Virus record (IMG/VR): IMGVR_UViG_3300033571_011534
Coordinates: 11,732-75,731 of that record
Source: a virus
DNA: 64,000 nt
Strand: one strand, 5' to 3'
The position numbers were made by a program, and so were the translations under genes. The notes beneath the pieces are model-generated. The model was given only the letters and a program-made list of their open reading frames with translations. It was not told where the DNA came from and searched no databases. Below are positions 2,438 to 59,929 of the stretch, one piece after another (the first letter of the stretch is position 1; every line of letters starts with the position of its first letter).

Positions 2438-2438
2438 A

Positions 2439-3098: not shown

Positions 3099-3099
3099 C

Positions 3100-3846: not shown

Positions 3847-3898
3847 TGCAAGGCACTCCTTTTAAATATATTATAGCAGATAGTAAAAGTGGCCAGCA

Positions 3899-4624
3899 TT
3901 AAGCAAAGTTCCAGAGCGACCACTTAGATCTCCAGGAACTGTCCCATTCTTCATACCAGGACTTAGACCAATCTTCCATTTTTTGACTTCTCCAGGCTTC
4001 TCTTTCTTCAGAATACTTGGAATCAGAAAAGTCCCAGAATGAAATTATTGTATATCTGAGTCCAGACGTGATTTCCCTTACTCCGTGGATGTTTTCCTTT
4101 CCTCCAGGAAAAAGAACTAGCGACCCAGCCTTTGGCCTAACGTCCATTTCGTGCTCAGGAAAAAACACCTCTCCACCAGAATACTGATCATTTAGATAAA
4201 TAATCGCTGCGTACTTATTTATTTCAAAATGGTTAGAGTCTCCATTTTCATCTGTATTGTCGGAGTGGACATGACCAAGACCTCCAGTTTGAAATTTTTG
4301 GGCATGAATAGTGTTAAGGGAAACGTCCTTAGAGAAAAAGAAAGATACGTGATTATTTATTTTTTCAACAATGTCATATACAGTAGATTTAGAAAGATTA
4401 AACAATTCAAGATCTACGTCTGGCTCTGGGAAGTGTCCTAGTCGATATTTATAAGAAGCAACATGCCCCCAATTTTCTGGTTTGCTTTCTATATACTTAA
4501 TTATGTTTTTGCAAGCCTCATCGTCTAAAAAATCCAGAACTTCTATTATTTTATTTTGACTGATTCCAGGAGTTCCATTATTATTCAAAGAGTCTAAATG
4601 GACAACAATTTTGGGGTCCATCAT
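3899..4624 (-). CDS. 2OG-Fe(II) oxygenase
   Basis: HSD, YLNDQYSGGEV, HGV.EITSG.RY; close paralog of 3100..3846. Confidence 0.9.
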   Translation of the reverse strand: MMDPKIVVHLDSLNNNGTPGISQNKIIEVLDFLDDEACKNIIKYIESKPENWGHVASYKYRLGHFPEPDVDLELFNLSKSTVYDIVEKINNHVSFFFSKDVSLNTIHAQKFQTGGLGHVHSDNTDENGDSNHFEINKYAAIIYLNDQYSGGEVFFPEHEMDVRPKAGSLVLFPGGKENIHGVREITSGLRYTIISFWDFSDSKYSEEREAWRSQKMEDWSKSWYEEWDSSWRSKWSLWNFA

Positions 4625-4629
4625 TTTTA

Positions 4630-5304
4630 TTACTCAGAAGTTTTTTCTTTATGAGACAGGATTGTCCAAAAGAACGGTACTGTATACCTGATACCAGAGA
4701 TAATTTCTGAAACTCCATGAATGTAGTTCATGTCTCCAGGGAAGAAGTAAGCAGCGCCCCTCTTAGGCTTAAATTGAATGTTCTGGTTTGGAAAGTACAA
4801 CTCGCCACCTTCATAATCATCGTTAATGTAGAAAAGGCCAGCAATGTCGTAATATGGGAAATCATTTGGCTTACCAGCGTCTGGTCCTGTGTGAAGCTCT
4901 TTGTCTGCGTGTGGCATCTGTAGCTGCCCTGGAAGCCATCTAACCATTGCTGGGCTAGTTGGGAGGGCGTCTACGCCAAAGAACTTATCTACCTCTATCT
5001 TCAATCTTGCAACCATTCCCTCAATAATTTCTGGAATTTCTTGATTTGTTTTATAGATAGTTGGATAGGTCGCTACACGATTAGCCCAGTATCCAGCATC
5101 ATAAATAACGGTTCCGTTTTCGTTGTGATGAGTTTCTGTTTGGTCCCAGTTTTCATTACTTCTAATAAAGTCATTTAGAGCAGTCAGCTCTTCTTCGGTC
5201 ATAAAATTTTCTAGGGCAACAATGTTTTCTGGAGATGAACCAAAAAATCCAGATGGCGTAATTGAAACCCGATCAACAATGTGATTGTTAGTTAAGTCGT
5301 CCAT
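4630..5304 (-). CDS. 2OG-Fe(II) oxygenase
   Basis: HAD, YINDDYEGGEL, HGV.EI.SG.RY. Confidence 0.9.
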   Translation of the reverse strand: MDDLTNNHIVDRVSITPSGFFGSSPENIVALENFMTEEELTALNDFIRSNENWDQTETHHNENGTVIYDAGYWANRVATYPTIYKTNQEIPEIIEGMVARLKIEVDKFFGVDALPTSPAMVRWLPGQLQMPHADKELHTGPDAGKPNDFPYYDIAGLFYINDDYEGGELYFPNQNIQFKPKRGAAYFFPGDMNYIHGVSEIISGIRYTVPFFWTILSHKEKTSE

Positions 5305-5318
5305 TATAACTCTCCTTC

Positions 5319-6044
5319 TTAGTCATACTTTCGTCTTTCCCAAACCTCTTTTAAGTATACACCACCGTTGGGCACCCGATATTTCTTCGAGTTTTCCATG
5401 TTCTTTTTCATAATAGAAAGGCCAGAATCAAGCTCGTACTCAGACTCCCAGTCCTCTCGTTTAAATGGTATCATTTGAGAATATGGTGTTCCAGCTGGAA
5501 TAACCCCAGTCCAGCCTTCTTGTATAAAAAATGGAAAAGTTCCTGGAAGGTGTACCTTATCATTGTCGATGATACCGCTTGTTGTATGAAATGGCAAGTC
5601 ATATCTTCCAAAAGGCTGGGCATACAAGACGCTGTACCCCTTTGGAGTAGCTACGGCCCAGTCTGGGTACCAGGCAAAATGCTTTTTATAGTATCCTCGT
5701 GGATGCTCAAACTGCGGCATAGGATCTCGAAACTGAATAAAATCAGAGTATTTAGGGTCTAATACTTTAGCTGAAATTTCATTTTTGCTATCAAGAAAAA
5801 ACTCGATATCGCAAGGAGTTCTATATACGTAACCAGTAATAAAAATATCATATATGGCTGGGCAGGCTTTCCAGGTTGGAATCTTACCACCATCCATTCC
5901 AATGATGCTTTCTCCATTTTGTCCCTTGTAGAATCTGTCAGCAGAGGTATACCATTCTGGCAAACTTTTTGATACTGGCTCTGGAGCTGATGAGTCTTTT
6001 TCGGACAACCACCCTCTATTAGCTAAAAATTTAATTTTTGGCAT
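5319..6044 (-). CDS. Conserved phage protein, DUF6065-like
   Basis: PEWY, TWKACP, GY..TPCDI, SGIIDND, IPAGTP..Q.IPF motifs; resembles the adjacent gene. Confidence 0.5.
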   Translation of the reverse strand: MPKIKFLANRGWLSEKDSSAPEPVSKSLPEWYTSADRFYKGQNGESIIGMDGGKIPTWKACPAIYDIFITGYVYRTPCDIEFFLDSKNEISAKVLDPKYSDFIQFRDPMPQFEHPRGYYKKHFAWYPDWAVATPKGYSVLYAQPFGRYDLPFHTTSGIIDNDKVHLPGTFPFFIQEGWTGVIPAGTPYSQMIPFKREDWESEYELDSGLSIMKKNMENSKKYRVPNGGVYLKEVWERRKYD

Positions 6045-6750
6045 AATTGGTGACCTTCATGATAATCTTTTTGGATTCGTGATGGCCGATAGGGACTCCG
6101 TTGTGGTCTACAGCATCTCGATAAAAATGAGTCCATTCCCCTTTAGAGTTCTTTTCCTGACTTGCAACTCCACGATCTCTCATTCTTTCCTGCCATTGAA
6201 GGTCCTCGTATTCTGGCCTTCCATTACGAACCTCTAGTTCGTGTTCCTGAATATCAGAAAGGGATATTGGCAAGACAGAAGCTATTGGAGTGTTTGCTGG
6301 TATTGTTATTTCAATATTTGGCTCTGTAATCATCCAAGCAATCGGAAGGTCACCAGCCAAAACAGAAGTACTTATTAGGGTTGTCATACACTGAGCTCCT
6401 CTAATAAACTGATTCGGCACAGGCATTGTCAAAAGACTTAGATTTTCATTGTTTTCTTTTACAAATGTAATGTCTGTGTAAAAGCTAACAGTTCTGTTTC
6501 CACGATTTGGATGAGCATAATTTGAACCAGAAAGAATTTTTACGTGCTCTCCTCTTGAATCATTTATTCCATCCCAAATAAACGTAATATCTTCTGGGTA
6601 CGAAATGCCCCACCCAAGTCTATTTGACAAAGAAACAGGAAAGCACTGATAGGCATGTCTATCAAAAGTAATATCCATCCAGTCACGGTGTAGCGGTAGC
6701 TGATCTATATTAGCGTGATGACCAGAAGTGTAGGCTGTTACCTTGGGCAT
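6031..6750 (-). CDS. DUF6065 family protein
   Basis: RDWMD...HAYQCFP.SLSN.LGW signature recalled for DUF6065. Confidence 0.65.
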   Translation of the reverse strand: MPKVTAYTSGHHANIDQLPLHRDWMDITFDRHAYQCFPVSLSNRLGWGISYPEDITFIWDGINDSRGEHVKILSGSNYAHPNRGNRTVSFYTDITFVKENNENLSLLTMPVPNQFIRGAQCMTTLISTSVLAGDLPIAWMITEPNIEITIPANTPIASVLPISLSDIQEHELEVRNGRPEYEDLQWQERMRDRGVASQEKNSKGEWTHFYRDAVDHNGVPIGHHESKKIIMKVTNYAKN

Positions 6751-7454
6751 CAGGAACCTGTCTCTTGGTAGAACTTTGGATTGTGATATTTATCTGAGTA
6801 ATCCAGCATTGTCACAATAGAATGCTTTATTCCAGACTCTACTGGCAACGATTTGTGAGGATACATGTAGTTAGATGGGAAGATGAAAAGATCTCCTGCC
6901 CTTGGCTTTACCTTTAGCCCCTGTAGTCTAAATTCTAGCTCTCCACCAGTATAGTCATCATTTGGATAGGCAACAAGCGAAACAACACAGTTATAGGAGT
7001 AACCGTTGTCAGAATGCTCTTGGAAGTGTTGTCCTGGACCATATTTTACAAAGTTCATTGCTTCCCAGTAGCGGAGCTCTCCGACGTTGAATCGTCTTGA
7101 GTAATCTTTTACTGCTGCGATTTCTCTATCATAAACATCTTGCCACAACTGCTGAAGCTTTTGAGATGCTGGAGATTGGTCATGCATAATATCTGTTTTC
7201 TTGTACTTAAAATCCCAGCAGTCACGGTATTCTGGCATCTTGGTACCGTAGCCCACCATAGCTTCCATGTAGTTGTAGTAGTTTGTATTATCGTCCAAAA
7301 CCTCTTCGAGTCTATTTATGATATCCATATCTGTAGGAAGGACATCGTGGTATACGAATATGCCAGGAGATAGCTCCTCTACAGAAGACCAAGTCTGCTC
7401 TTCGATCTGATAGTATTCCTGAATTCTTCTGCTTAAATCTTCAACTTTTTCCAT
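6750..7454 (-). CDS. 2OG-Fe(II) oxygenase
   Basis: FVKY, HSD, NDDYTGGEL, FPSNYMYPH, SG.K. Confidence 0.9.
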   Translation of the reverse strand: MEKVEDLSRRIQEYYQIEEQTWSSVEELSPGIFVYHDVLPTDMDIINRLEEVLDDNTNYYNYMEAMVGYGTKMPEYRDCWDFKYKKTDIMHDQSPASQKLQQLWQDVYDREIAAVKDYSRRFNVGELRYWEAMNFVKYGPGQHFQEHSDNGYSYNCVVSLVAYPNDDYTGGELEFRLQGLKVKPRAGDLFIFPSNYMYPHKSLPVESGIKHSIVTMLDYSDKYHNPKFYQETGS

Positions 7455-7464
7455 TTTTCACCAA

Positions 7465-8220
7465 TCAGTATGTTATCTTTGTCGAGTCCTCTTGCCTATA
7501 TGGGAAATATCTTAGATTTCCACGATCATTGTAGTCTGTCATAACAACCACAGAGTACTTTGTACCGCTTTTCATTGGCAATGAGGCGTGTTCATATATA
7601 TATGTAGATGGGAAAACAGCAATATCTCCAGGCTTTGGCTTAATAGTTAAATCAAACCTTGGGAAGTAAAGCTCTCCACCCTCATAATCATCGTTTAGGT
7701 ATGCAACAACAGAGACTGTAGTCACATATGCGGGACCATGGTCTGCATGAATATTAAAATGCTTCCCCTCTCCCTCATACTTTACAAAATTAAATGCTTC
7801 GTAGTATGATATTCCTACTCCCCAATAGTGTCCATAATCCTGGACATTTGGGTGAATAGCCTGAAATGCCTTTTCGTGCATATCATATAGTTCTGAGTTT
7901 TCTGGATTTCTTGGGCCGTAGGAAGTACTATTAATTTTAAAGTCTACACAATCTCTTGCATCTGATAAAACAGCATCAGACTCTGTTACCATGGCTCCGT
8001 GCCACTTATAGACATCACTTGTGCTATTCGTAAGCTTTGACTCTAGGGTATTTATAATGCTCTTACAGTCGTTAAAAGAAATAGCATTATTGTAAATATT
8101 AATTCCAAGTGCTGGATTTGATACTAAAATACCGCCACCTGTTGTTCTGTCTGGCATTCTGTTGCTATAAGTTTCGGATCTATCTTTAGTTAGCCAAGGA
8201 TTTTCATATTGTTGTTCCAT
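7465..8220 (-). CDS. 2OG-Fe(II) oxygenase
   Basis: FVKY, HAD, YLNDDYEGGEL, FPSTYIYEH, SGTKY; leaderless after TGATATAAT (8227-8235, minus). Confidence 0.9.
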   Translation of the reverse strand: MEQQYENPWLTKDRSETYSNRMPDRTTGGGILVSNPALGINIYNNAISFNDCKSIINTLESKLTNSTSDVYKWHGAMVTESDAVLSDARDCVDFKINSTSYGPRNPENSELYDMHEKAFQAIHPNVQDYGHYWGVGISYYEAFNFVKYEGEGKHFNIHADHGPAYVTTVSVVAYLNDDYEGGELYFPRFDLTIKPKPGDIAVFPSTYIYEHASLPMKSGTKYSVVVMTDYNDRGNLRYFPYRQEDSTKITY

Positions 8221-22749: not shown

Positions 22750-23388
22750 ATGTCGGTTCAGGTTATTGATAGCTACATTTCGGATTACGATGCAAGGATG
22801 ATCATCGATGGATTTTCTCCGCACCTGGTAGCCAGCGGCCGAATTGGTATGGCTGAGGCTCAGTACGCAGATCCAGTTAAGGCGATTAACAACATTTACG
22901 AAGGTAAGCCGATTATTGACAATGAGGAGTCACTTGAGGCTGCAGCACTTTTTACAGAAACTGTTAACAAGATCGCAAAAGAGATCAGCGAATTTTACAA
23001 CGTAGAGGCAGTGCCTGCAAGCTCGATTTTTGCAGAGGTTTCTCAAGGCGGTAAAAATGGACTTCACTGCGATAGTGTCATGATAGACGGCACTCCGTGG
23101 CCAGATAATGACGATACACTGGATGGTCTTGAGTTTTCGGCATTATTGTATTTAAATACTTCGGGGGTAGATTACGAAGGCGGTCAAATCGTATTTCCAA
23201 ATCAAAAGATCACGATAACGCCAGAAGTCGGTAAATTGATTTTCTTTCGGGGCGATATTGATCACCCACATGAAGTTTCCGAAGTAACCGCAGGCACAAG
23301 ATATGCATTAGTTTTGTTTTATGGCTCCGCTGATAAAGTAAAGCAATATCAGAGATTTAAGTCAAAGCTCAATTTCGGCGGTATATAG
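22750..23388 (+). CDS. 2OG-Fe(II) oxygenase
   Basis: HCD, LYLN..DYEGGQI.FP, HEV..V..GTRY. Confidence 0.88.
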   Translation: MSVQVIDSYISDYDARMIIDGFSPHLVASGRIGMAEAQYADPVKAINNIYEGKPIIDNEESLEAAALFTETVNKIAKEISEFYNVEAVPASSIFAEVSQGGKNGLHCDSVMIDGTPWPDNDDTLDGLEFSALLYLNTSGVDYEGGQIVFPNQKITITPEVGKLIFFRGDIDHPHEVSEVTAGTRYALVLFYGSADKVKQYQRFKSKLNFGGI

Positions 23389-24347: not shown

Positions 24348-24563
24348 CTATTTTAGAATAGAAAGACTAGCTAATGCATCTTCTACATTGTCAAACATTG
24401 CAGTAAAAGCATCTAGTGATTTTTGCTTTCGCAATTCACCACACACTTTCAAATCGTGATTAGCTTTCCATTTTTTAGCATCTAGGTAGTAGCTCAAAAA
24501 AGTTTCTTGTTCGTATTCACAATTTGAGCAACGAGTCTTGCGATACATTGTTGTTTTAGTCAT
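24348..24563 (-). CDS. Hypothetical early protein (CxxC)
   Basis: AAAGGA RBS; in leftward mini-operon. Confidence 0.55.
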   Translation of the reverse strand: MTKTTMYRKTRCSNCEYEQETFLSYYLDAKKWKANHDLKVCGELRKQKSLDAFTAMFDNVEDALASLSILK

Positions 24564-24662
24564 TTAGTTATTTTCCTTTTCATTTAGAGAGATTGTTAGT
24601 TGAGTGATTGAAGAGATTGCGTTATCGAACTCTTCCCAAGTTTCGAATGTTAGGGTAATCAT

Positions 24663-24860
24663 TTATTCACCGTCCCAACAAGTGTTCCAGTCAGTTTCGC
24701 AAGGCTCCCAATACTGAAAGCTTGAGCAGAAAGCGCAACCTGCGAACTTATCGTGCTTGATACAGTAAGCCCTATCCTGGTATTCATCACAACAGCGGAA
24801 TAGGTCATCACCGCTTAGGGTGTAGTAGTAATCACTTACCTTGAACATTGTTTGAGTCAT
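24663..24860 (-). CDS. Hypothetical Cys-rich early protein
   Basis: AGAAAGGATA RBS; downstream of the minus-strand promoter at 24968-24991. Confidence 0.6.
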   Translation of the reverse strand: MTQTMFKVSDYYYTLSGDDLFRCCDEYQDRAYCIKHDKFAGCAFCSSFQYWEPCETDWNTCWDGE

Positions 24861-24886: not shown

Positions 24887-24934
24887 TTATTTGCTAGGCT
24901 CATACCGCTAAGGGTCTTATTTGCTAGGCTCATA
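24887..24934. repeat. 18-bp direct repeat x2
   Basis: ttatttgctaggctcata at 24887 and 24917. Confidence 0.9.
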
Positions 24935-25057
24935 ACCTTTTTTTTCTTATTTATTTATCTTGCTTTTAGCCTAACACGAACCTACGACATTTATACCCCT
25001 TTTTCTAGCCTTTTTGATACAAACTTTAGACTAATTTTTTGTAGGGTATCTACAAAG

Positions 25058-25087
25058 TTATCCACAGGCATAGAATAGTTATCCACA
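25058..25087 (+). promoter_or_regulatory. Two perfect DnaA boxes
   Basis: TTATCCACA at 25058-25066 and 25079-25087. Confidence 0.7.
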
Positions 25088-25241
25088 GGTGCGCCGAGGC
25101 CCTATATCTAGTAGTACTAATTAAGTTACGATACTAGATCTAGATCTCCCAGAATTATAACAAAATGATAACAACAACGGCGTGTCGCTTGATAAATGTC
25201 GTAGGGTTGTGGTAGGTTGTTAGTAGTTAGAAAGGATAGAA

Positions 25242-25466
25242 ATGAATAACGAACTATTTGAGAAATTGGTATCACTAAAGACTGATACTCATACCGCTAG
25301 GTTTAGCGATGATGGCTCTGCCGTCAAACACGATGAAGAAAAATACCAAAAGGCTTTGGCTAGTCAAAACGACTTTACTGATGAAGAGATAACAGCGGAG
25401 AGTGTTCGCCGTTGGAACCTGATGATACAGAAAATGAACGAGGCATACCAAGCCAAAATGTCCTAG
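25242..25466 (+). CDS. Hypothetical early protein
   Basis: AGAAAGGATA RBS, promoter at 25195. Confidence 0.65.
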   Translation: MNNELFEKLVSLKTDTHTARFSDDGSAVKHDEEKYQKALASQNDFTDEEITAESVRRWNLMIQKMNEAYQAKMS

Positions 25467-25501
25467 GGTTATGCTAGGCTAATTTTAGAAAGAAGGAAAA
25501 A

Positions 25502-25681
25502 ATGGAAGAAAAAATCTGTGTATTTTGTATGAACCTAGTCAATGACTATGTATGCTTTGAGTGTGATGACTACAAGGGTCTAATGCCACTAAAGGAAGCT
25601 GAGAGCTATCTAGGTGAGGACTTCCCTGAAGAGTACCGCCAACCAATGGCTATCTATGGGCAGAGGCTCTACTGGCAATAA
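25502..25681 (+). CDS. Small CxxC..CxxC protein
   Basis: MEEKICVFC...CFEC; RBS and promoter at 25457. Confidence 0.55.
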   Translation: MEEKICVFCMNLVNDYVCFECDDYKGLMPLKEAESYLGEDFPEEYRQPMAIYGQRLYWQ

Positions 25682-25893
25682 ATGTCAGAGGGTCATGCTA
25701 GGTTATAAGTAATTAGAAAGGATAAAGATGTACTACAACAGAGAAGCCCACCAACTACTAGAGGACACCCTAAAGGTTCTTCAGGCTAAAAGAAAACACG
25801 CCTACCCATACATGGTTGGACTACTAATGCCAAATGTTCCTTTGACAGAGGCTAAGAGAATTGCTAAGATTGTAGAAGAAATGGAGAGTGAAA

Positions 25894-26070
25894 ATGACTG
25901 AGGAAGATTTCGATGATTGGCTAGATGATGTTTATCCAACTTATCAAATTGCGGGGGTAGAGTTGCGTCCCTCACAAATGCTAAAGAACTGCGACCCTAT
26001 CGCATACAGAATTGCGATGTCAGAATGTGAAGATAGAGAAGAGGAATGGAATGGCTACTTTGACAACTGA
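25894..26070 (+). CDS. Small acidic phage protein
   Basis: FDDWLDDVYP...PSQMLK..DPIAYR motif seen in phage early genes. Confidence 0.55.
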   Translation: MTEEDFDDWLDDVYPTYQIAGVELRPSQMLKNCDPIAYRIAMSECEDREEEWNGYFDN

Positions 26071-26722
26071 AGAACTAGAAACCCTAATTTTTCAAATTGA
26101 CCTAATGCTATCTGATGACAAAATGTCTGAGGGTGTTGGTAGTCTTTTTACAACAAGAGAGGATAACTAAATGATTTTTTATAACGGATTCAATCTAATG
26201 ATTGATTTGATTTTGGTTGCTGTTGTGTATGTTGTTGCTCACGGAATTGGATACCGCAAAGGCTTAGACAAAAACAAAACACCATTTTAGCAACACGCCA
26301 AAGCCAGGGCTTGACAATTCTGGTTTTTTGGGCCGAGGCGATCTGATCGGGCCCCAAATTTTGTTTACGAAGATGTTTACGAAATTCCCAAAAAATCTCC
26401 CAAAAATGTCAGAGGGTCAATGTATAATAAGGCTATGAAACTAGGAAAAGCTAATGAATCAAGACGCAAGGCGGAAAGTCAAGAACTATTCCGCAACTTA
26501 CTAAAAGCTCCTCACCTAGTTTCTACCCCTCAAAAATACAAGGGTAGCCGTCAGTCTAACAAGACTAACGCTATCAAGGAAAGTAGAGCAAGTGAGTAAT
26601 TATAACTGTTGGGACTGTAATAAACTAACTAGACACTTATTCGAATACAGAACAATAAATGTCTGTGCCTCATGCTATGCTATTAGAGTTGGACACCCCT
26701 CAGCAAGAAAGTTGGTAAAGTA

Positions 26723-26884
26723 ATGGGAAAGTATTCTGTTGGCTATGACGGTTTCGTTATCGTCAATGCTAAGAATGAGGAAGAGGCCTATAACAAGGCT
26801 AACAAGTATCTAAGCAAGACTAACCTTATCAATGATGGTGATGAGGGTGAATGGTATCTTACTGAAGCGGAAGAGATAAAGTAA
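26723..26884 (+). CDS. Small acidic protein, VEA.SEEEA-type family
   Basis: MGKYSV...IVNAKNEEEAY; coupled by TAATG overlaps. Confidence 0.5.
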   Translation: MGKYSVGYDGFVIVNAKNEEEAYNKANKYLSKTNLINDGDEGEWYLTEAEEIK

Positions 26885-27186
26885 TGGGAAGAATGACGGC
26901 CATGTCAATTGCAGAGACAGATGTATCACTAGAGCAACAACTAGCCTGGCACCTTCAAGGGAATCACTATCCACCAATTCCAAAAGCAATGGTTCAACCC
27001 TGCATAGACGCTATTGACGCTTATTGGGAAGAGGACTATGACAGACTAATCCAATTGCCAATTGATGGCTTAGACCGTAATGGAGAGCCATTCCAAATTA
27101 GATGGCGTGATGGCTCAGACAAGGCCCCTGCATGGGCATTAGTTGAACACGCTCACCTTGACAGTTGGCTGCCTGAAATAGAATAA
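26884..27186 (+). CDS. Conserved actinophage protein
   Basis: WHLQGNHYPP...CIDAI...APAWALVE.AHL..W. Confidence 0.65.
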   Translation: MGRMTAMSIAETDVSLEQQLAWHLQGNHYPPIPKAMVQPCIDAIDAYWEEDYDRLIQLPIDGLDRNGEPFQIRWRDGSDKAPAWALVEHAHLDSWLPEIE

Positions 27187-27230
27187 ATGTCAGACGTCGT
27201 CTGTATAATTGTCTAAGAAAGGATACCCCA

Positions 27231-27950
27231 ATGCCCCTAATACGTTCAAAAGATAGAAAGGTAACAAATGCTGTATCTCCGAATGGTAAGTCGCCCACTA
27301 TTGCTAACACCTTTGGGCTTCCGTCTGGTAAAGCGTTTTCCTGCCCTGGAGCGACTAGTGTATGCGAGAAAGTCTGCTACGCTGGCAAGCTTGAGAAAAT
27401 CTACAAGGGAGTAAAAGACGTTCTTCTAAACAATTGGGACCTGCTACGTAATGCAGACCAATTGGAGATGGAAGCGCTACTTTACCAAATGATAGATGAG
27501 TTTGATAAAGACTGTAACAAGCGCAATGCAGAAAAGCTGTTTCGAATTCACTGGGATGGAGACTTCTTCAATGAGACTTACACTCACGCTTGGAAGAATG
27601 TAATCAAGGCTTGGCCTAGCATTCAATTCTGGGTATACACTCGTTCAGACTTTTCGGTACCTATTCTTAGCGATGTTGACAACCTTAGCCTGTACTTCTC
27701 AACTGATGATGACAACTGGCAGCTGGCTAGTAAGTTGAAGCAAGAGACTGGCGTCAAGCTTGCATACCTTGCCAATAACTTTGCAATGGGTAAAGAGCGG
27801 ATGTTGTCTATAACACCTAAGTCTGCAATTCCTTGTCCTGAGAATGCTAAGAAACTTCCGCTAATCAGTGACAAGGGCTCCGCCTGCGTAACTTGCGGAC
27901 AGTGTGTGTTCGCTCGCAATGACATTTTATTTAGCGCTAGCAAAAAGTAA
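27231..27950 (+). CDS. GP88-family protein (radical-SAM-like Cys motif)
   Basis: CPGATSVCEKVCYA, FRIHWDGDFF, FWVYTRS, C-terminal CP..C..C..C. Confidence 0.7.
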   Translation: MPLIRSKDRKVTNAVSPNGKSPTIANTFGLPSGKAFSCPGATSVCEKVCYAGKLEKIYKGVKDVLLNNWDLLRNADQLEMEALLYQMIDEFDKDCNKRNAEKLFRIHWDGDFFNETYTHAWKNVIKAWPSIQFWVYTRSDFSVPILSDVDNLSLYFSTDDDNWQLASKLKQETGVKLAYLANNFAMGKERMLSITPKSAIPCPENAKKLPLISDKGSACVTCGQCVFARNDILFSASKK

Positions 27951-28248
27951 GGAGATGAGGTAAAATATACCATGGACGCATTTTATATCATAACTATTTT
28001 ACTTCTTATGTCTCTATTGCTAGTCTCTACTAATCGAAAATAGACTCATGCTATAGGGGCATGTAAACTGTAGGGATCTTCTTACATCCTTTCTTAGGTC
28101 CTTACCGTCCTGGCTACGACGTAAAACTGGCCACAATCTGGGCCGAGGGCTTTATAACAAAATAATAAAGATTTAAGATCCTTTACGACACGCTCCCAAA
28201 ATGTCGTAGGGTTGGTGTATAGTAATACTACCTAACAGAAAGTAGAGT

Positions 28249-28812
28249 ATGGGAACTAGAGGAATAACAGAAGTAATTTACAATGGCGAGACTGTAGTTA
28301 GCCAGTATGGTCAATGGGACCACTACCCAAGCGGTCAGGGTATCACAGCGTTCAAGTTTCTACGCAGCCAAGAAAACATCGACAACCTAAAGAAAAACCT
28401 TAGCCTAGTCTATGTTCCAAGTGATGAGGAATACAAGTCTATTGTTAGCAAGTATTCTGATGAGCGTGGAATGATGACTATGGAGCAAGGTGAAGAGTAT
28501 AGCAAGATGTATCCAAGTCTTACTAGAGATACTGGTGCTGGTATCCTTGAGGTAATTGCTAACGCTACCAATCCAGTTCCGTTGTTCCTGGACCTAGAGT
28601 TCAAAAACGACAGACTGTTTTGTGAGGGTGTCTACACAATCAACCTAGATGACAACACTTTCACAACTAGATACAATCGCTATGAAAATGAAAATGATGA
28701 AGATACTTTGACTTTATCTTTTGAGCAGATTCTTTACACAGGTGAAGATGACTATCTGGAAAAAGCAAAGTGTGGAGTCTATCAGTATCTCAAGGCTGAG
28801 GCTTTAGCCTAA
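28249..28812 (+). CDS. Conserved phage protein
   Basis: MGTRG...QYGQWD.YPSGQG...CE..Y.I.LD pattern. Confidence 0.6.
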   Translation: MGTRGITEVIYNGETVVSQYGQWDHYPSGQGITAFKFLRSQENIDNLKKNLSLVYVPSDEEYKSIVSKYSDERGMMTMEQGEEYSKMYPSLTRDTGAGILEVIANATNPVPLFLDLEFKNDRLFCEGVYTINLDDNTFTTRYNRYENENDEDTLTLSFEQILYTGEDDYLEKAKCGVYQYLKAEALA

Positions 28813-29035
28813 CAAAGATACCCTGCCAGCTTGACAAACTGGTGGGGATCTGGTCGGGCCCAAAACTAGTAATTTGTCAAGTTTACGATTATAACAATTT
28901 TTCCCCTGAATTGTTATAAAAAAAATAGGGCGTGGCTCTTGATAATGTCGGAGGTATGCCCTATAATTTAGGAGTAGCAAAAACGACTACTAAATAGAAA
29001 AATCCTAGTGGAAAGACTAGGTGAAAGGAAGCAAA

Positions 29036-29191
29036 ATGGCAAATGTAATTGCCCCCGTTGTTGGCTCACAATACACTACTCAGAAATCAGGTGTTTCTGG
29101 GATTGTTCAGGAAGTAGTGGCAAATAAGACTGGCACTTATCGTGTTCGTCTTGATGTAAATGGTCAGCCACGCTGGACAACTATCAAGTAA
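29036..29191 (+). CDS. Small beta-rich protein
   Basis: GAAAGGA RBS; YTTQKSGVSG.V.EVV...RVRL...RWTT. Confidence 0.55.
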   Translation: MANVIAPVVGSQYTTQKSGVSGIVQEVVANKTGTYRVRLDVNGQPRWTTIK

Positions 29192-29299
29192 TAAATTAGT
29201 TTGAGGGGGTAGAGTTATTTATCCTTTCGCTACCCCCTCTCCTAAAATGTCTTACCCTGCCCCTATAATGTAATTACCCCAAATAGAAAGTAGAAACAA

Positions 29300-29746
29300 A
29301 TGGCTAGAACCCTGTCCGTAAAAGTTCCAACAAGCAAACTAATCGCAGACATTGAGGCAAGTATTGCTAAGATTGACGCAGACATTGAGGCGTATGCTGG
29401 AAAGCGTAAGCAGTATGAAGCAGACATAAAGCAGTATGAGAAAGACCTTGTTGCTTTTGCGATTGACGCACTAAAGAACCCAGACAACATTGGAACAGAA
29501 CACAACGCACTAATTCGCATCACAACCAACAACTACCGCAACGCTGTATCTGTTGATTTTGATACTGAGGCACTTGGCTTTCCAAAGCGACCAGAAGAGC
29601 CAGCCAGACCAAATGAAAAAAGTTATTTTGGTAGGGACTACACCACACGCAAGGAAATCCTAGAGAAGAACCTTCGTATTCTCAAGATGACCTCGCAAGA
29701 GGAAGTATCAGCGAGTTCATACTCATCTGTTATTGACCTAATCTAA
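29300..29746 (+). CDS. Hypothetical coiled-coil protein
   Basis: AGAAAGTAG RBS, promoter at 29246. Confidence 0.65.
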   Translation: MARTLSVKVPTSKLIADIEASIAKIDADIEAYAGKRKQYEADIKQYEKDLVAFAIDALKNPDNIGTEHNALIRITTNNYRNAVSVDFDTEALGFPKRPEEPARPNEKSYFGRDYTTRKEILEKNLRILKMTSQEEVSASSYSSVIDLI

Positions 29747-30164
29747 TCTTATTCGCACAAATACTGTGTAGGCAACTACTCTAAAGCTGAAGCGAATAAT
29801 CACCTGAGCAAGTGGCTAAACTGCTCACTAGATTTGGTAAGGCAGATGCTATTTGCTGTTGCTGAATAGAAGTGAGTGCTAGCACAAAAACTTCGTTCCT
29901 TACCTCCAAAGATTGATCCTGCTAATTGTAATGGTACACTGGGCTTGGATCAATACCCCCTGTTGCAATCAATTTGATAGATGCCCAGTTCGAACGAAGC
30001 ATCTCGCAGGGGGATCTTCCCATTTTTGGGTCGGGCCGCCGTTACCAAATTGTTATTTACGAAGACTAATTATTTTTTCCTAGATTCTTGACAAATGTCA
30101 GAGGGTGGCTGTAAAATAGTCTCAACAAACAAATAACTAATAACCCTAATAGAAAGTAGATAAA

Positions 30165-31166
30165 ATGGCACACTTGCTAGAACAGTCCGCAACAGGCGAA
30201 ACCGCTTTTGCTTCTTTTCGTGAGCCTGCTTGGCACCAGCTAGGCACAGTTTTCAATGAAGAAGTCTCAACTAACAAGATGTTGAAACTCGCACACCTTG
30301 ACAACTGGAATGTTCGCTTGGAAGATGTAGCGATTCCAAATGGTTTTGAGAGTGACAAGAATTATTTCTTCGTGACTAGAACTAACCCATTCAACAAAGA
30401 GCAAAATGATGTCCTTGGCGTAGTTGGTGAAAGATACAATGTTCTTCAGAATGAAGACTTATTTGATTTCGGTGATGCCCTGCTAGATGGTGGTCGCTGG
30501 GAAACTGCTGGTTCAATCAAGAACGGAAGACAGGTTTTCGGTTCTCTTGCTCTTGAGCGTGAAACAGTTCTTGACCCTAACGGCGTGTCAGATGTTGTAA
30601 AGTCTTATTTGCTAATCAACACTAGCCACGACGGCTCAGTTGCTATTCAGGCAAGTATCACACCTGTTCGTGTTGTATGTGCTAACACTCTAAATCTTGC
30701 TCTTGGTAAAGGCAACAGAGGTGTCAAGCAAACTTTCAAGATTCGCCACACCGCAACAGCATCTGGCAAGGTTGCTCAAGCTAGAGAGGCTCTTGGTCTT
30801 GCTAATAAGTATCTTGATGAGTTTGATAAGCTTGCTCAGTCTATGATTGCTAAAGAAATTACTAAGGCTCAGTTTGACAAGATTGTTGAGCTTGCTTATC
30901 CAAAGCCTGACAAGGACACAAAGGGTGCTGTCAAGAAGTGGGAAAACAAAACAGACATTCTTCAGGGAATCTATGTTGGCTCAACTAACGGAATGATTGC
31001 TGGAACTGCTTGGGGTGCTTTCAACGCTCTAACAGAGAGACTAGACTGGTATCGCACTGCTAGAGGTGGTTCTAACGAATCTATTCTAGCTGCTGCTTCT
31101 GGTTTTGACCCTGTGACTACCGCAGAAAAGAACAGACTGCTTCAGCTGGTCTTGGCTAACGCCTAG
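30165..31166 (+). CDS. DUF932 / TIGR03299-type phage-plasmid protein
   Basis: REPAWH.LG, LG.VG..Y...QN, ETAGS...G, SHDGS, TPVRVVC.NTL, RHT, GTAWG..NA.TE..D. Confidence 0.85.
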   Translation: MAHLLEQSATGETAFASFREPAWHQLGTVFNEEVSTNKMLKLAHLDNWNVRLEDVAIPNGFESDKNYFFVTRTNPFNKEQNDVLGVVGERYNVLQNEDLFDFGDALLDGGRWETAGSIKNGRQVFGSLALERETVLDPNGVSDVVKSYLLINTSHDGSVAIQASITPVRVVCANTLNLALGKGNRGVKQTFKIRHTATASGKVAQAREALGLANKYLDEFDKLAQSMIAKEITKAQFDKIVELAYPKPDKDTKGAVKKWENKTDILQGIYVGSTNGMIAGTAWGAFNALTERLDWYRTARGGSNESILAAASGFDPVTTAEKNRLLQLVLANA

Positions 31167-31357
31167 CCAAAAGTCCTGAGCATGACTAAAAACTGCTCTC
31201 CATTCATTTGCCAGGATCTAAAATTTTGGGCCGAGGGCCTAAAATAAACTTAATTAATAAAAAATCTTAATTACGAACTATCAAAAAAATTCGCAGAAAT
31301 CTTGATAAATGTCGGAGGGTCATGTCATAATAGACCTACCCTAAAGAAAGTAGACAA

Positions 31358-31552
31358 ATGCCCAAATACTATGTGAAGATGCGTATTGACTTTGCTGGTG
31401 AGCTAGAAGCAGAATCAGCTGAGGCAGCCGAACAACTAGCTTGGACTAGTTGGGGAGACTCTATGGACAACGACATAACCTATGATGGTGTTTATGACAT
31501 TGACGTAGAAGAGATTGAAGATGATGAGGAAGATGAGGAAGAAGATGAATAA
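31358..31552 (+). CDS. Small acidic protein, VEA.SEEEA-type family
   Basis: ELEAESAEAAEQLA; acidic tail. Confidence 0.55.
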   Translation: MPKYYVKMRIDFAGELEAESAEAAEQLAWTSWGDSMDNDITYDGVYDIDVEEIEDDEEDEEEDE

Positions 31553-31687
31553 GCACTTCCGCTGCCAGACTACAATTTCTTTTGACCAGGTATCAGATGG
31601 ATACTATGCACAATGCCCTAGTTGCGATGAAGACCTATTTAGTTTTGAGGTCGTATAATGTCAGAGGGTAGTGTTATAGTATCTACT

Positions 31688-31924
31688 ATGAAAGTATGCC
31701 CCAATCATTCAGGTAGTTTTGACTGTACCCCCTTTTGTCGTATCTGTGAGGGAAACCAGGAGTACGAGTCAAACGGCTACCTACCATGTAACAGATTCGG
31801 CCACTGTGGAGAATACATTGAGGAGGACATCTGGCATGAGGAGCTAGGCTTCTGTGTTGAATGTTCTCACTTATACTGGGACCAAGAGCTAGACCCATTT
31901 ACACTAGAGAGGATAGAGCAGTGA
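31688..31924 (+). CDS. Cys-rich hypothetical protein
   Basis: Leaderless start after TATAGT; CP.H...DC.PFC..C. Confidence 0.55.
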   Translation: MKVCPNHSGSFDCTPFCRICEGNQEYESNGYLPCNRFGHCGEYIEEDIWHEELGFCVECSHLYWDQELDPFTLERIEQ

Positions 31925-32053
31925 AAGAGTGGACCACCTTTATAAATAAATCTAATAAGAATGAGTTTGAGACTCTGCTAGCAGACATAATGTCAGAGGC
32001 TCTTGCTAAACTAGATACTGTCCCTGATGAAGAACTAGAAAGGCTAATTGACT

Positions 32054-32209
32054 GTGAGTAAAACTTGGCAAGTAGAATACAACGCTACCTATTGGGTAGA
32101 AGCAGAAACAGAAGACGAGGCTATTGAGTTGGCTATTGAATCACACGCTGACCTACCTAACGGAGACTGGGAAGCACACATTGAGCAGAAGTGGGAGACG
32201 AAAGCATAA
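32054..32209 (+). CDS. Small acidic protein, VEA.SEEEA-type family
   Basis: GTG start; WVEAETEDEAIELA. Confidence 0.5.
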   Translation: MSKTWQVEYNATYWVEAETEDEAIELAIESHADLPNGDWEAHIEQKWETKA

Positions 32210-32366
32210 TGGCTACCAGCGAAATGGAAAAGATTGGATACGAGAATGGTATTAGATTTGCTATTCATTCCATAGAAAAATCTCTAGACAATCCAGCACT
32301 AAACATCTTGACACCAAAGCAGAGTCTTGGTATCCTATTAGCATCACTAAGAATGGAGATTCAGTA

Positions 32367-32564
32367 ATGTCCTATGTATTAGAACAAACAAGCTATGTTT
32401 CAGAAGACGGAAACTTTGGAACAGGCTACCTACTAACATTCCCCTACAATGCGCTGACTGAAGAGCAGTGGGAAGTATTGGACATGCTAAACGATAGCTC
32501 TAAGATGGAGTATGCCCACGCTATCCTAAATGGACAGGCTGACCTATCGGAGTGGGAAGGCTAA
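32367..32564 (+). CDS. Hypothetical acidic protein
   Basis: TAATG coupling on both sides. Confidence 0.5.
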   Translation: MSYVLEQTSYVSEDGNFGTGYLLTFPYNALTEEQWEVLDMLNDSSKMEYAHAILNGQADLSEWEG

Positions 32565-32836
32565 TGGCCAAAGAGGTCTGGAGTGTGTCTGTCTACAAAG
32601 AAGGCATAATCGAAATAGACACTGATGAAATGACTATCGAACAGGCGGTAGAGGATTGGGTCTATGACCTGGAAGTTGACTACGACCTAATTGAAAGAGT
32701 GGAAGGCTAGTCCTTCCATTTTTTCGGTCGGGGCTGATCTTTAAATAAAATACTTATAAATAAAAAACCTTTAAGATCTCATTATTTTTTTTCCCAGATC
32801 CTTGATAATGTCAGTGGGTAGCAGTATACTATAGTC

Positions 32837-33223
32837 ATGAAAGTAAAGTTGATTGATCCAGAAAAAGCTAAAAACGTATTGGGACTAGACAAGGAAGAGC
32901 ACTGGGTTGCCCCTTCTGTTGTTGTCAACACCCCCAAAGGCCTAGCCGTAGTTTGCTATGAAGGTGTAGGCTGGTTCGAAAACGAGGGCAAGTACAAGAT
33001 CCTTGTTGGAGATGAATGGAATGATTGGGTAAAAGAAATCACTAAGGATGAACTTATTAGTATTATTTCTAATAAGGAAACTACCCTTCATCAGTTAATT
33101 GATCCGCACAATGATAGGACTAGATCTAATCTATCGATCTGGGAGAATCAGATTAAGAATACCCCGCAAAATGTCGTAGGGTTAGGTTATAATGAGGAAA
33201 AGAAAGAGGTGGCAAATGCCTGA
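32837..33223 (+). CDS. Hypothetical protein (possibly recently acquired)
   Basis: Leaderless after the 32807 promoter; contains GATC/TTAA unlike neighbours. Confidence 0.5.
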   Translation: MKVKLIDPEKAKNVLGLDKEEHWVAPSVVVNTPKGLAVVCYEGVGWFENEGKYKILVGDEWNDWVKEITKDELISIISNKETTLHQLIDPHNDRTRSNLSIWENQIKNTPQNVVGLGYNEEKKEVANA

Positions 33224-33395
33224 ATACAAAGTTCAAAGAGAGTACACCAACTGGGAAGAAATTACAGTTGAGGCAGATTCGGAAGAGCAAGCTTTAGAGA
33301 TTGCAGAGGACGACGAAGACTTATGGAACTATGCAATTGATGCTAGTTCATATAATTACACAGGTGAGACCTGGGTAGGAGAAGCAGATGCCTAA
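33216..33395 (+). CDS. Small acidic protein, VEA.SEEEA-type family
   Basis: MPEYKV...TVEADSEEQALEIA; GAGGTGG RBS. Confidence 0.55.
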   Translation: MPEYKVQREYTNWEEITVEADSEEQALEIAEDDEDLWNYAIDASSYNYTGETWVGEADA

Positions 33396-33558
33396 GCACA
33401 TGCATTACTTTAGCTATGGAGCCTGCATTCATTGCGGTAAGGCAGTCAACAAAGGCCTTGGCGTAGACCTGTACAAGGGAAAAAGGGTTTAAGAACCCTC
33501 TTGACAAAATCCCAGAATCCTGAGATAATAGTTTTACCCTAGAGAAAGTATAACCCCA

Positions 33559-34315: not shown

Positions 34316-34472
34316 ACTAAGATTGATGCGTTGAGCCAAGCTCCGCATCATATGGATACGACAGTTAGGGGTAGCTAGCGTATCCAGGGGGTGTCAGGAC
34401 TTTTCCTACTTTCAGTCTTGACACCCCAACCAATTTGTGGGATAATGGGCACAGGAGAATAACCAATTGACA

Positions 34473-34929: not shown

Positions 34930-35177
34930 TTTTTGACCCAGCTTGACATTCGATCAAGACTGTGGTCGGGGTATGTTATCAAAATGTTATCAAACCACTA
35001 TTGACAAAACCTTTACGATGGACTATAATATTTCCCTGAAATTTGATCGAGGTCTATCCAAACCTCAAACCTTATATTGTTTAACATATTACGATCATCT
35101 GTAAAAAATCGCTGAAATATTTTACATATAGGTTTGGGTATTTTTGGCAATCTTATCAAACATGATATACTTATGCC

Positions 35178-37444: not shown

Positions 37445-37595
37445 ACCCTTTGCTCTCAGTAGTACTATTTTATAGTATTACGAAGACATTGTCAATACCC
37501 CAGGATGCTAGAGGCTATTGCTATGTAATAGCATACTAATCTCTATAATCCGCCGAACTTTTTGCCGCCGAACTTAATGCTATAATGTATAAGAT

Positions 37596-38070: not shown

Positions 38071-38433
38071 CTAAATATCTTCTTTTTCTAGCCAGGCTAC
38101 TAGCTCTGGATTGTCACGCAAGAACATTAGCATTGCATTTTCGTAAACACCAATAAAGAAATGCTCCCACTCCTCAAAGTCTGCCTCTGGCTTTGGGAGG
38201 CCGTTCTCAAAGACCATCCTCATTGCATGTAGGATTTCGTGCAGTAGCGTTACCTGCTGCTTGCTACGACTAAGGGCACTGGAAACGACAATAAGGTTTC
38301 CAAGATCAAGAGTGTACCCATTTGTACCATCATTAAGCATGCCGTCATCTTTTGGGTCACGGAACACAATATTAAAAACTTGGCTTCCAACCTTTACCTT
38401 TTCTGGATAAGCCTCTACCTTAGTCGACTTCAT
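38071..38433 (-). CDS. Zincin-like metallopeptidase domain protein
   Basis: TLLHEILHA (HExxH) with downstream E. Confidence 0.65.
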   Translation of the reverse strand: MKSTKVEAYPEKVKVGSQVFNIVFRDPKDDGMLNDGTNGYTLDLGNLIVVSSALSRSKQQVTLLHEILHAMRMVFENGLPKPEADFEEWEHFFIGVYENAMLMFLRDNPELVAWLEKEDI

Positions 38434-38617
38434 TCTTAGATCTCCTCAACCTCAGATATTTCTCTAATGCTGATGGCACGTTGAACTCCTGCAATATACC
38501 CATCTTGCCAGGCAGTTAGGGCTGACTCTGTTGTGTCTCTCCCAACGCTTGCCATCCATTTTTGCATGTCTAGCGGAGCAAACTTAACTATTTCAGATTC
38601 GATGTCCAACTGGTCTC

Positions 38618-39112
38618 CTATGATATTAGTGGTTCTTTGTTTACGTGTGTTACCCAGAAGTAACTACAAGTGCTGCAGCATGGTTTGTTGTCCTTGCTGA
38701 CAGTGGCAATCTTAAAGGAATAGTAATACTCTGGATCCTTCTTGTAAAGATTAGCTTTATGCGTAGTTATGATTCTATCACTAAACTCTGGGTTTTGCAA
38801 CCACTCTGGAAACTGGCTTCCCCACAGGAACTTCTTTGAAGACCTAAGATTTGCTAGATTTTCCTCATTCTTATCTGTCTTGATACCACGCTTTTTTGCC
38901 TCCTGGACCATGGCTTTTGCATAGGTAAACAGGACGTGCTCTGAGCCTCGCCACATCTTGACAGCTGGATGATTGCGCCAGCCAGCTTTTGGATCATCGC
39001 TTGAAAGGACCTTTAGTATTTGATAAGTTTCTAGTATTTGCTTGTTTAGTCTTTTTGAGTCTAGCGTCTGCGCTATATCTTTAAAGTTTTTTGATGTAAG
39101 GAAAGTCTGCAA
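38618..39112 (-). CDS. MSMEG_6728-like / pyrimidine-dimer DNA glycosylase family protein
   Basis: MQTFL...LD.KRL.KQ..E..QI...W.NHPAV.MW...H..NL..KD..YY. Confidence 0.75.
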   Translation of the reverse strand: MQTFLTSKNFKDIAQTLDSKRLNKQILETYQILKVLSSDDPKAGWRNHPAVKMWRGSEHVLFTYAKAMVQEAKKRGIKTDKNEENLANLRSSKKFLWGSQFPEWLQNPEFSDRIITTHKANLYKKDPEYYYSFKIATVSKDNKPCCSTCSYFWVTHVNKEPLIS

Positions 39113-39211
39113 TGTTGCCTTCTTCTGTAGAGAGTTTTCTTATGTACCCATTATAGCTTATAACCAAATGCCTGTCAAGAATATCTTATTAAATAAACTA
39201 ATTACTCATTA

Positions 39212-39240
39212 TTGACAAAAAGGATTATCTTTGATATAAT
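39212..39240 (+). promoter_or_regulatory. SigA-type promoter
   Basis: TTGACA-17-TATAAT with extended TG. Confidence 0.8.
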
Positions 39241-39853: not shown

Positions 39854-39879
39854 TTGCCCCAGTCGTGTATAATATAACC

Positions 39880-40548
39880 ATGAGGCACGAACTACAAAAC
39901 CTGACTAAACAGAATTTTATTGATTTTGGATACTCGGTAGAAGAAATAGATACCGAAATATTTTTAATTAAAGACTTTTTGACAGATGAAGAAGCTAAAG
40001 CGTTTTTAGATATAGCAAACTCTGCTAGTGAGGATGAATGGTCTGTTTCTTATATAGAGGGGCTAAAGTCTTTCGCTAGAGCAAAGTTTGGATACGACGA
40101 CTTAGATGAACTGGTTGCCAGCGGCAAGCTTGAGATTACCGATAGATGGAGAGACAAGAACCTTACTTTACACGACAAGAGTCTTCTTGACCCAATAAAC
40201 GAAAGACTTTCAAGGGTTATAAAGCATATTCCTGAGCTTTTGTATAATGGTATCGATGCTATACAGAGGCAGTATGAAGGCGCAGATCTTGTGGTCCATG
40301 TTGATAATCAAACAGACCCCTCCCTTGTTTATGCCGCAATTATCTATCTAAATGACGACTATACAGATGGTGAGCTTATATTTCCAGAGCGTGGCATTGA
40401 AGTAAAGCCACCAGCAAAGACTTTGGCGATATTCCCCACTCACGAAGAATATCTTCATGGAACTAACGCTCCTGGGCCTGGTCCCGTAAGGTATGTCTTG
40501 CCCTCGTTTATTGGCGTAAAAGGCTTTTACGAGAACAATAAATACTAA
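39880..40548 (+). CDS. 2OG-Fe(II) oxygenase
   Basis: HVD, YLNDDYTDGEL, HG..RY; paralog of 2439..3098. Confidence 0.88.
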   Translation: MRHELQNLTKQNFIDFGYSVEEIDTEIFLIKDFLTDEEAKAFLDIANSASEDEWSVSYIEGLKSFARAKFGYDDLDELVASGKLEITDRWRDKNLTLHDKSLLDPINERLSRVIKHIPELLYNGIDAIQRQYEGADLVVHVDNQTDPSLVYAAIIYLNDDYTDGELIFPERGIEVKPPAKTLAIFPTHEEYLHGTNAPGPGPVRYVLPSFIGVKGFYENNKY

Positions 40549-49946: not shown

Positions 49947-50237
49947 TTATTTGCCCTTATCCATTGTTAAAACTTCCCAGGTTTTGGCCCAGTCTTTTTT
50001 ATTTCTATGACGATTAAACTCTTTTGAAATTTTTCCAGATTCTAGATACACTCCACCCCAGACACCCCATTCTTTTTGAGAGATGCCAACAGCAAAGCAC
50101 TGCCTCACAACTGGACAGCCAGAGCAAAGCTGATCTATTGCTGGACGTAAGAGTTCATCTTCTTCGTATGTATCAAAAAATAAATTAGTATCATAATCAC
50201 GACAAGAGGAATCATCTTTCCACTTGCCACTATCCAT
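49947..50237 (-). CDS. whiB: WhiB-family Fe-S transcription factor
   Basis: W....C...D..LFF, C..CPV...C, GVWGG. Confidence 0.9.
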   Translation of the reverse strand: MDSGKWKDDSSCRDYDTNLFFDTYEEDELLRPAIDQLCSGCPVVRQCFAVGISQKEWGVWGGVYLESGKISKEFNRHRNKKDWAKTWEVLTMDKGK

Positions 50238-59297: not shown

Positions 59298-59458
59298 TTT
59301 TCTCGCTTTCTTTTTGCTGAATAAATTTTTGATCAATTAGTTTTTGAATTACTCTTTCTGCTATGAGGTCTGCAAACTTTTCATCTTGCAGTTGTTTATC
59401 AAATAGCTCTGGAAGTCCCATTGCGTTTCCTATCTCTAAATATAAATTATATCATAAG

Positions 59459-59531
59459 CAGTCCGTACGGGATTTGAACCCGTGCTCTTCTGCGTGAAAG
59501 GCAGACGAGATAACCGCTACTCCAACGGACC
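59459..59531 (-). tRNA. tRNA-Glu(TTC)
   Basis: Cloverleaf; anticodon arm tctgc-CTTTCAC-gcaga; GTTCAAATC T-loop. Confidence 0.92.
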
Positions 59532-59535
59532 ACAG

Positions 59536-59607
<72 letters not shown>

Positions 59608-59624
59608 AAGGCCACTATTTATAA

Positions 59625-59822: not shown

Positions 59823-59855
59823 GTTTCCTCCGTTTGTTTAGGCATATTGCCTAAG

Positions 59856-59929
59856 CGACTCCAACCAGACTTGAACTGGCGACCTCCTCCGTGACAGGGA
59901 GGCGCTCTAACCAACTGAGCTATGGAGCC
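59856..59929 (-). tRNA. tRNA-Asp(GTC)
   Basis: cctcc-CTGTCAC-ggagg; GTTCAAGTC. Confidence 0.93.

Follow-up and report, generated by a model that had tools for sequence, protein, structure and literature searches.

The promoters that PafBC activates in vivo carry the consensus tGTCgg(N10)tA(N3)T, whose 5' part lies at -28 to -23 and which is not accompanied by a -35 element; the GTC triplet within it is near-invariant across actinobacteria and is contacted by residues R46 and R50 of PafB (PMC8635444). Sigma adaptation of the PafBC type is so far known only as a host response to DNA damage, and among the papers searched for links of PafBC or the RecA-NDp motif with phages, mycobacteriophages included, no description of phage promoters of this class was found. 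The pafBC genes are said, in one citation, to affect mycobacteriophage resistance. Here we describe 17 sites with this architecture in an uncultured lake phage, IMG/VR record IMGVR_UViG_3300033571_011534 (75,731 bases, 40% GC, 67% complete according to CheckV). Bases 11732-75731 of the record were analysed as one stretch of 64,000 nucleotides (nt), called the window in what follows, and all positions refer to it. The sites form a block at 24968-33193, and from comparisons with host-type genomes and related phages it appears rather probable that they are promoters for the host SigA holoenzyme adapted by host PafBC.

Matches to the pattern AATGTC-N12-YANNNT number 19 in the window; in 100 dinucleotide shuffles their number is 1.76 ± 1.16 (largest count 5). 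Seventeen of the matches fall within 24968-33193, 16 on the plus strand and one on the minus strand, where it faces a leftward mini-operon; a recount thereby reproduced the number given in an earlier note on this DNA, and the -10 hexamers listed there proved exact (TATAAT five times; TATAGT, TAGGTT and TAGGCT twice each; TAGTCT, TATGCT, TAAAAT, CATAAT, TAAACT and TATACT once each), as did its nine sites reading TGTCRG. In all 17, TGTC stands at exactly -28 to -25, the published position, preceded by AA at -30/-29 and with a 10-nt gap between the TGTC hexamer and the -10 element, which is TAnnnT in 16 sites and CATAAT in one. No -35 element is present in 12 of the 17. Aligned, the sites yield the longer consensus W-A-A-A-T-G-T-C-n-K-A-G-G-G-T-N5-TAnnnT, and the whole-record motif scan that the earlier note had proposed, run with a position weight matrix built from the 17 sites, gave no further match of at least 13 bits in 75.7 kb. 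The claim that such sites are absent outside 24.9-33.2 kb stood only in part. A minus-strand match at 37467-37490 is an extra hybrid promoter, TTGACA-17-TAAAAT with a perfect -35 and the AATGTC box and without a G tract, whose ATG follows 22 nt past the -10; the second outsider, at 7825-7848 on the minus strand, lies within a coding array and looks like a chance match.

The sites face downstream genes, as had been claimed. An open reading frame (ORF) starts 6-53 nt past the -10 element in 16 of the 17, and three sites (26405, 31657, 32807) are leaderless, with an ATG 6-7 nt past the hexamer. The remaining leaders, of 21-53 nt, bear AGAAAGGA or AGAAAGTAGA, which we take to be Shine-Dalgarno sequences able to pair with the 3' end of actinobacterial 16S rRNA. 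The 16 rightward promoters serve about 30 small ORFs on the plus strand (25242-33395), among them a GP88 and a DUF932 gene, the only block ORFs for which Pfam gave a significant family. Four small or medium-sized ORFs of the block are kept in all three complete relatives described below. For the conserved 148-residue early-type protein, a look-up in the ESM Atlas returned only unnamed viral clusters.

The same element is found in genomes of the host type. The host of the phage is, judged by gene content, an actinobacterium, because the phage encodes a WhiB-family protein (49947-50237, minus strand), a marker of actinobacterial hosts, and its GP88-family protein shares 54% identity with Mycobacterium and Streptomyces phage proteins; in a control search of 14 reference genomes, WhiB rose above the family cut-off in Corynebacterium only. 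As a host-lineage sample, the 20 smallest (1.3-1.5 Mb; 45-50% GC in 20-kb samples) of 400 genomes from the class that holds Amycolatopsis were taken; their size and GC content suggest that they may be 'Ca. Nanopelagicales'. In 20 of 20, recA is preceded by a single TGTC-N12-TAnnnT site. It has the form TTGTCAGTGGC...TAnnnT, usually cTTGTCAGTGGCGCCTGCTACCTT, and is directly followed by TCGAAC, presumably an SOS half-site. Two of the 20 genomes carry the variant TGTCAGCCC before recA, with the same alternation of GG and CC that the phage sites display. Two adjacent WYL genes were present in each of the six low-GC genomes of 1.3-1.5 Mb tested (five and G163), which are stand-ins for the phage's own host. 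In G163, a complete genome of 1,468,350 bases with 47.5% GC, one product matches M. smegmatis PafB (7P5X) over its full length (E 6e-40) and keeps K5, R8, E42, A43, R46, R50, K52 and R56, and the second WYL product matches PafC. The PafBC-type architecture proposed earlier is thus borne out by the position and spacing of TGTC in all 17 sites, by the same box before recA and by pafB-pafC in host-type genomes; the assumption of PafBC in the host itself holds for the stand-ins.

G163 contains 50 TGTC-N12-TAnnnT sites, 11-13 of them intergenic in a genome whose intergenic share is only about 5%, and the intergenic sites precede recA, carD, ssb, a DinG-like helicase gene and a gene with a full SOS box. 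It holds only two AATGTC-N12 sites, so the phage box is not a general promoter form of this host type. The G·C tract at -21 to -19 is a preference of the phage sites, which host-type sites lack or show more weakly. Two further observations concern G163 itself. Five PafBC-type promoters lie within 27 kb (C1:470268-497662, loci L272-L273) before genes for a trypsin-like peptidase, a TPR protein, a VWA protein, a C5 DNA methylase and an ORF of unknown function, and this stretch is perhaps a damage-controlled island. The phage matrix scores highest at C1:183617 and 188341 (plus strand), two sites that are 4.7 kb apart and have the downstream sequence TTGAATAcgaacYgtgagtaaRcaatctgcag in common.

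Beyond this phage, the architecture is conserved in a family of lake phages with genomes of 100-112 kb. A scan of IMG/VR with the N12 pattern gave at least 120 loci, where the presence of one site per locus is ascertainment, the loci having been found by that very pattern. The counts that follow are among the matches listed. At least four sites occur in 30 loci, and 266 of their 276 sites lie on one strand. The spacing is rigid, with 388 sites at N12 and 8-37 at each other spacing from N8 to N16. In the consensus of 254 distinct sites TGTC is followed by R/T-G-W-S-S; G stands at -23 in 77% and A or T at -22, and A occupies -32 in 53% and -31 in 66%. Positions -21/-20 are GG or CC in 204 of the 254 and mixed (GC or CG) in only 11. 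An extended -10 TG at -15/-14 is present in about 58% of the family sites and an A at the expected +1 in 73%, and the -35 region matches in at most three of six positions in 65% and in at least five of six in 23%. When AA at -30/-29 is not demanded, it is still found in 207 of 236 strong TGTC sites (88%). Between 12 and 28 sites were counted in each of five related records (78-112 kb), of which three are at least 95% complete. The sites of a record always form one cluster of about 10-13 kb, and a reversed-pattern control gives 0-2 matches. Three of the five have gene order in common with this phage at 40-89% protein identity, and four encode WhiB.

Alongside these sites the phage has promoters of the canonical sigma-70 type, as the earlier note had said of the flanking genes. 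TTGACA-17-TATAAT is matched in 12 of 12 positions at 35001-35029 (plus strand), 39150-39178 (minus strand) and 39212-39240 (plus strand) and in 11 of 12 at 33501-33529 and 34418-34446 (both plus strand), so that three members of this second class stand directly after the block. The perfect pair within 39150-39240 is divergent, and its leftward member serves a pyrimidine-dimer DNA glycosylase gene in the minus-strand stretch 38071-39112; the gene is followed there by an ORF (38071-38433) with a weak IrrE/M78-peptidase-like match (E 0.008). A helper-free class next to a class that mostly lacks a -35 is the pattern to be expected if the second class were conditional. The relatives suggest that the two elements can take each other's place. 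Upstream of the conserved 148-residue gene, this phage and the relatives G404 and G407 have TGTC sites, and G408 has TTGACA at 18 bp and AATGTA where AATGTC stands elsewhere. The promoter of the DUF932 gene combines TTGACA with TGTC here and in G404, TTTACA with TGTC in G407, and is purely canonical in G408. Since the G408 orthologues bear TTGACA where the box is lost, box and -35 element appear to be interchangeable.

According to the mechanism that we favour, the SigA holoenzyme, the housekeeping polymerase of the host, would recognise the TAnnnT -10, and the host PafB-PafC heterodimer would stand in for the absent -35 contact at most sites. The helix-turn-helix of PafB would read GTC at -27 to -25 and PafC would bridge to sigma domain 4, the step termed sigma adaptation. 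As PafBC is activated by single-stranded DNA (ssDNA), the early-type block would fire once ssDNA appears in the infected cell, whether its source is phage DNA that enters or is resected, replication, or damage to the host, and the separate TTGACA/TATAAT set would require no adaptor. The G·C tract at -21 to -19 and the A run at -32 to -29 might be refinements made by the phage that help the DNA to follow the straight path that it takes in the PafBC complex; GGG and CCC could serve equally because a strand-symmetric G·C tract would stiffen the segment. It is our inference that PafBC would bind the sites, that the block would be expressed early and that ssDNA would set it off. The wider proposal, that a family of probably virulent freshwater actinophages of about 100 kb gave up the -35 element for an early-type regulon with PafBC as ignition key, so that the cell's own signal of DNA injury or entry would launch the phage programme, and with the A run and the G·C tract as refinements towards a "super-site", seems to us evenly balanced between right and wrong.

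Several observations weigh against a PafBC-driven block. The AA at -30/-29 is the main point in favour of a different reader: host-type sites mostly have T at -29, so the AA is not common to them, and the phage box, being no plain copy, could fit such a reader. It would be odd for the first genes of a phage that is probably virulent to depend on an adaptor conditional on ssDNA. Five of the 17 sites have TTGAYA at 17-18 bp and the G408 orthologues do without the TGTC box, so some or all sites may need no more than SigA. PafB and PafC were found in six genomes that stand in for the phage's own host, which gene content places no more closely than among the actinobacteria. Finally, the record is only 67% complete and many of its small ORFs have no detectable family.

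The different reader could be a phage adaptor of no recognisable family that reads the AATGTC box at -30 to -25 and bridges the host sigma factor in the manner of MotA/AsiA, an explanation that we regard as unlikely. It might be a small early protein or one co-injected with the DNA; in that case the block would consist of middle genes, and its promoters would resemble PafBC sites through convergence or through mimicry of the docking geometry. The AA (in 17 of 17 sites here and 88% of the family) and the G·C tract would be its own, phage-specific preferences, the canonical promoter class would be available to express the factor first, most ORFs of the block and its flanks are without a Pfam family, and the four conserved block ORFs offer candidates. 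However, a WYL-domain activator encoded by the phage, the alternative raised in the earlier note, was not found by family search of this phage and five relatives, including three with a completeness of at least 95%, nor was sigma-70 region 2 in this phage and its relatives (the same three at least 95% complete) or AsiA (PF09010) in this phage and four relatives; MotA was not searched for on its own. PafB- or PafC-like sequences were not found by tblastn in this phage, and among about 40 ORFs from the block and its flanks neither a transcription factor nor a DNA-binding domain was recognised in Pfam and PHROGs searches. Moreover, the core, its position and the TGTC-R-G-W-S-S flanks coincide with host recA promoters beyond what a new reader would need. 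The MotA box itself, (t/a)(t/a)(t/a)TGCTTtA centred at -30, is not fitted by the phage box WWAATGTC.

That no adaptor acts at all, the sites being ordinary SigA promoters with a good -10, an extended -10 TG and partial -35 matches, is in our estimate improbable. TGTC and the G·C-tract spacer would in that case be a spacer or shape element, or a patch of homology for cassette swapping, and besides the five TTGAYA sites and the canonical promoters of G408, the TG at -15/-14 in about 58% of the family and the contig joints of lake metagenomes, which end 6-26 nt from several of these promoters, would agree with this. Yet 65% of the family sites match the -35 in no more than three of six positions, this phage can and does use TTGACA/TATAAT when it needs to, as its perfect copies elsewhere make clear, and AATGTC-N12, at two copies in the host-type genome, is not a general promoter form there. 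Spacer elements are not known to require an invariant GTC at a fixed 12 nt, and GTC is the defining PafBC contact (PMC8635444). A third possibility is that the box is an operator, bound between -35 and -10 by a phage repressor or shut-off protein that silences the block later in infection. The spacer is a classic operator position and the box is common to all promoters of one block, but the box is asymmetric, it keeps the same distance from the -10, to the exact base, in 388 family sites, it stands mostly where a -35 is absent, it recurs before host recA and ssb genes, and no candidate repressor domain was found among the roughly 40 ORFs searched; we consider this explanation very improbable.

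Individually, the sites differ in their surroundings. The minus-strand site (24968-24991; AATGTCGTAGGTTCGTGT-TAGGCT) faces the leftward mini-operon at 24348-24860, and all others are on the plus strand. The first of these, at 25195-25218, is a hybrid with a TTGATA -35 at 18 bp and an ATG 23 nt past the -10. Next come the site at 25457-25480, embedded in the end of ORF 25242-25466 (ATG at 21 nt), that at 25681-25704, which has the top matrix score of 33 bits (ATG at 23 nt), and that at 26122-26145 (ATG at 25 nt). The leaderless site at 26405-26428 lacks a -35 and has its ATG 6 nt past TATAAT, and a GCC variant at 26658-26681 has its ATG 41 nt past the -10. The sites at 27186-27209 and 28200-28223 precede the GP88-family gene (27231-27950) and ORF 28249-28812, respectively. 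At 28944-28967 there is a hybrid with TTGATA at 17 bp, at 29246-29269 a C-tract variant (TTACCCTGCCCC) before the conserved 148-residue ORF (29300-29746), and at 30094-30117 a hybrid with TTGACA at 18 bp before the DUF932 gene (30165-31166). A further hybrid, at 31308-31331, combines a TTGATA -35 with the CATAAT -10. The site at 31657-31680 is leaderless (ATG 7 nt past TATAGT), that at 31989-32012 lies within ORF 31861-32061, and that at 32807-32830 is both hybrid, with a TTGATA -35, and leaderless (ATG 6 nt past TATACT). The last site, at 33170-33193, lies within the end of ORF 32837-33223, which together with the site at 25457 agrees with the earlier remark that some sites are embedded in the ends of upstream ORFs.

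Pieces of the region are present in freshwater and lake metagenomes, and contigs from four lake or freshwater runs attest both its presence and mosaic relatives; no match to the block turned up when its nucleotide sequence was compared with 50,697 deposited phage genomes. Over 24900-33300, lake metagenome contigs show that relatives bear different gene cassettes. Joints between contigs lie 6-26 nt from TGTC promoters, at 25173/26393, 26096, 28929, 29235, 29275 (back to 27225) and 31340. They suggest that the repeated promoters are swap points of gene cassettes, which is a hint only, the joints having been called at 80% likeness.

Regarding the phage itself, a cyanobacterial host, suggested by the 40% GC and the 2-oxoglutarate (2OG) oxygenases, was rejected on the WhiB match. 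A full-length KatG catalase-peroxidase of 731 residues (57141-59336, minus strand), which is absent from the three related complete phages, was tried as a host marker against 185,579 species genomes and discarded: it is 55-59% identical to KatG of many phyla and for that reason says nothing on the host. Comparing all phage ORFs with G163 by tblastn revealed no close host link, and tetranucleotide correlations with the 20 small actinobacterial genomes were modest (0.25-0.53). Prophage induction as the purpose of the block was set aside, as no tyrosine integrase was found in the phage and four relatives, serine integrases not having been searched for; the phage is probably virulent. It encodes ten 2OG-Fe(II) oxygenases (PF13640), at 892-8220 (minus strand), 22750-23388 (plus strand) and 39865-40548 (plus strand). 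Eight are divergent paralogues (24-43% identity) that stand in tandem beside a short-chain dehydrogenase gene (224-892), an array that is missing in G404 and G408 and has weak partial matches (24-38% identity) at one place in G407. Four tRNA genes (Glu-TTC, Thr-TGT, Asp-GTC, Asn-GTT), clustered at 59458-60054 on the minus strand, lie between katG and the ribonucleotide reductase genes.

Should host PafBC indeed read these promoters, this would be the first phage regulon wired to PafBC. It would also mirror the anti-phage defence that WYL regulators control, except that here the alarm would benefit the phage. The several hundred variant sites would form a natural library of PafBC-type promoters, showing which bases beyond GTC matter. 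Furthermore, they would make gene timing accessible to tests in phages that infect the most abundant freshwater bacteria, for which there is no genetics, and would be a source of compact promoters inducible by ssDNA or damage for actinobacterial genetics.

Compared with described systems, the phage sites are closest to the PafBC (RecA-NDp) promoters, with which they have in common TGTC at -28 to -25 with an invariant GTC, the 10-base gap, the SigA-type TAnnnT, the usual lack of a -35 and G at -23 (PMC8635444, PMC6789036, PMC11804915), as well as the occurrence of the element before recA in host-type genomes that encode PafB and PafC. They differ in belonging to a probably virulent phage, in numbering 12-28 per genome in one co-oriented cluster, and in preceding small genes of unknown function rather than repair genes. 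In addition, they strongly prefer AA at -30/-29, A also at -32/-31, and a GG(G) or CC(C) tract at -21 to -19, and about a third of them also have a usable -35. The T4 middle promoters, which depend on sigma appropriation by MotA/AsiA, likewise retain the host -10, with a box near -30, set at a constant distance, in place of the -35. However, the T4 box (TGCTT) is unrelated to the TGTC found here, and where T4 supplies its own factors, no AsiA homologue or other recognisable activator was found in this phage, and the proposed reader is a host protein. The host-takeover regions of the large virulent phages SPO1, T5 and T4 hold clustered strong early promoters with near-consensus -35 and -10 elements that are read by the host holoenzyme alone. 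In these features they differ from the present block, but like it they consist of close-set promoters, each for one to three small genes of unknown function, and their gene content varies between relatives as a mosaic whose exchange points coincide with the repeated promoter. Lastly, the WYL regulators BrxR and CapW turn on anti-phage defence upon sensing ssDNA (PMC9122601, PMC9122588, PMC11662680). As in the mechanism favoured here, a sensor that joins a winged helix-turn-helix to a WYL domain, with ssDNA as its ligand, ties infection or DNA damage to transcription; there the host turns the signal on the phage, whereas here the phage would exploit the signal of its host.

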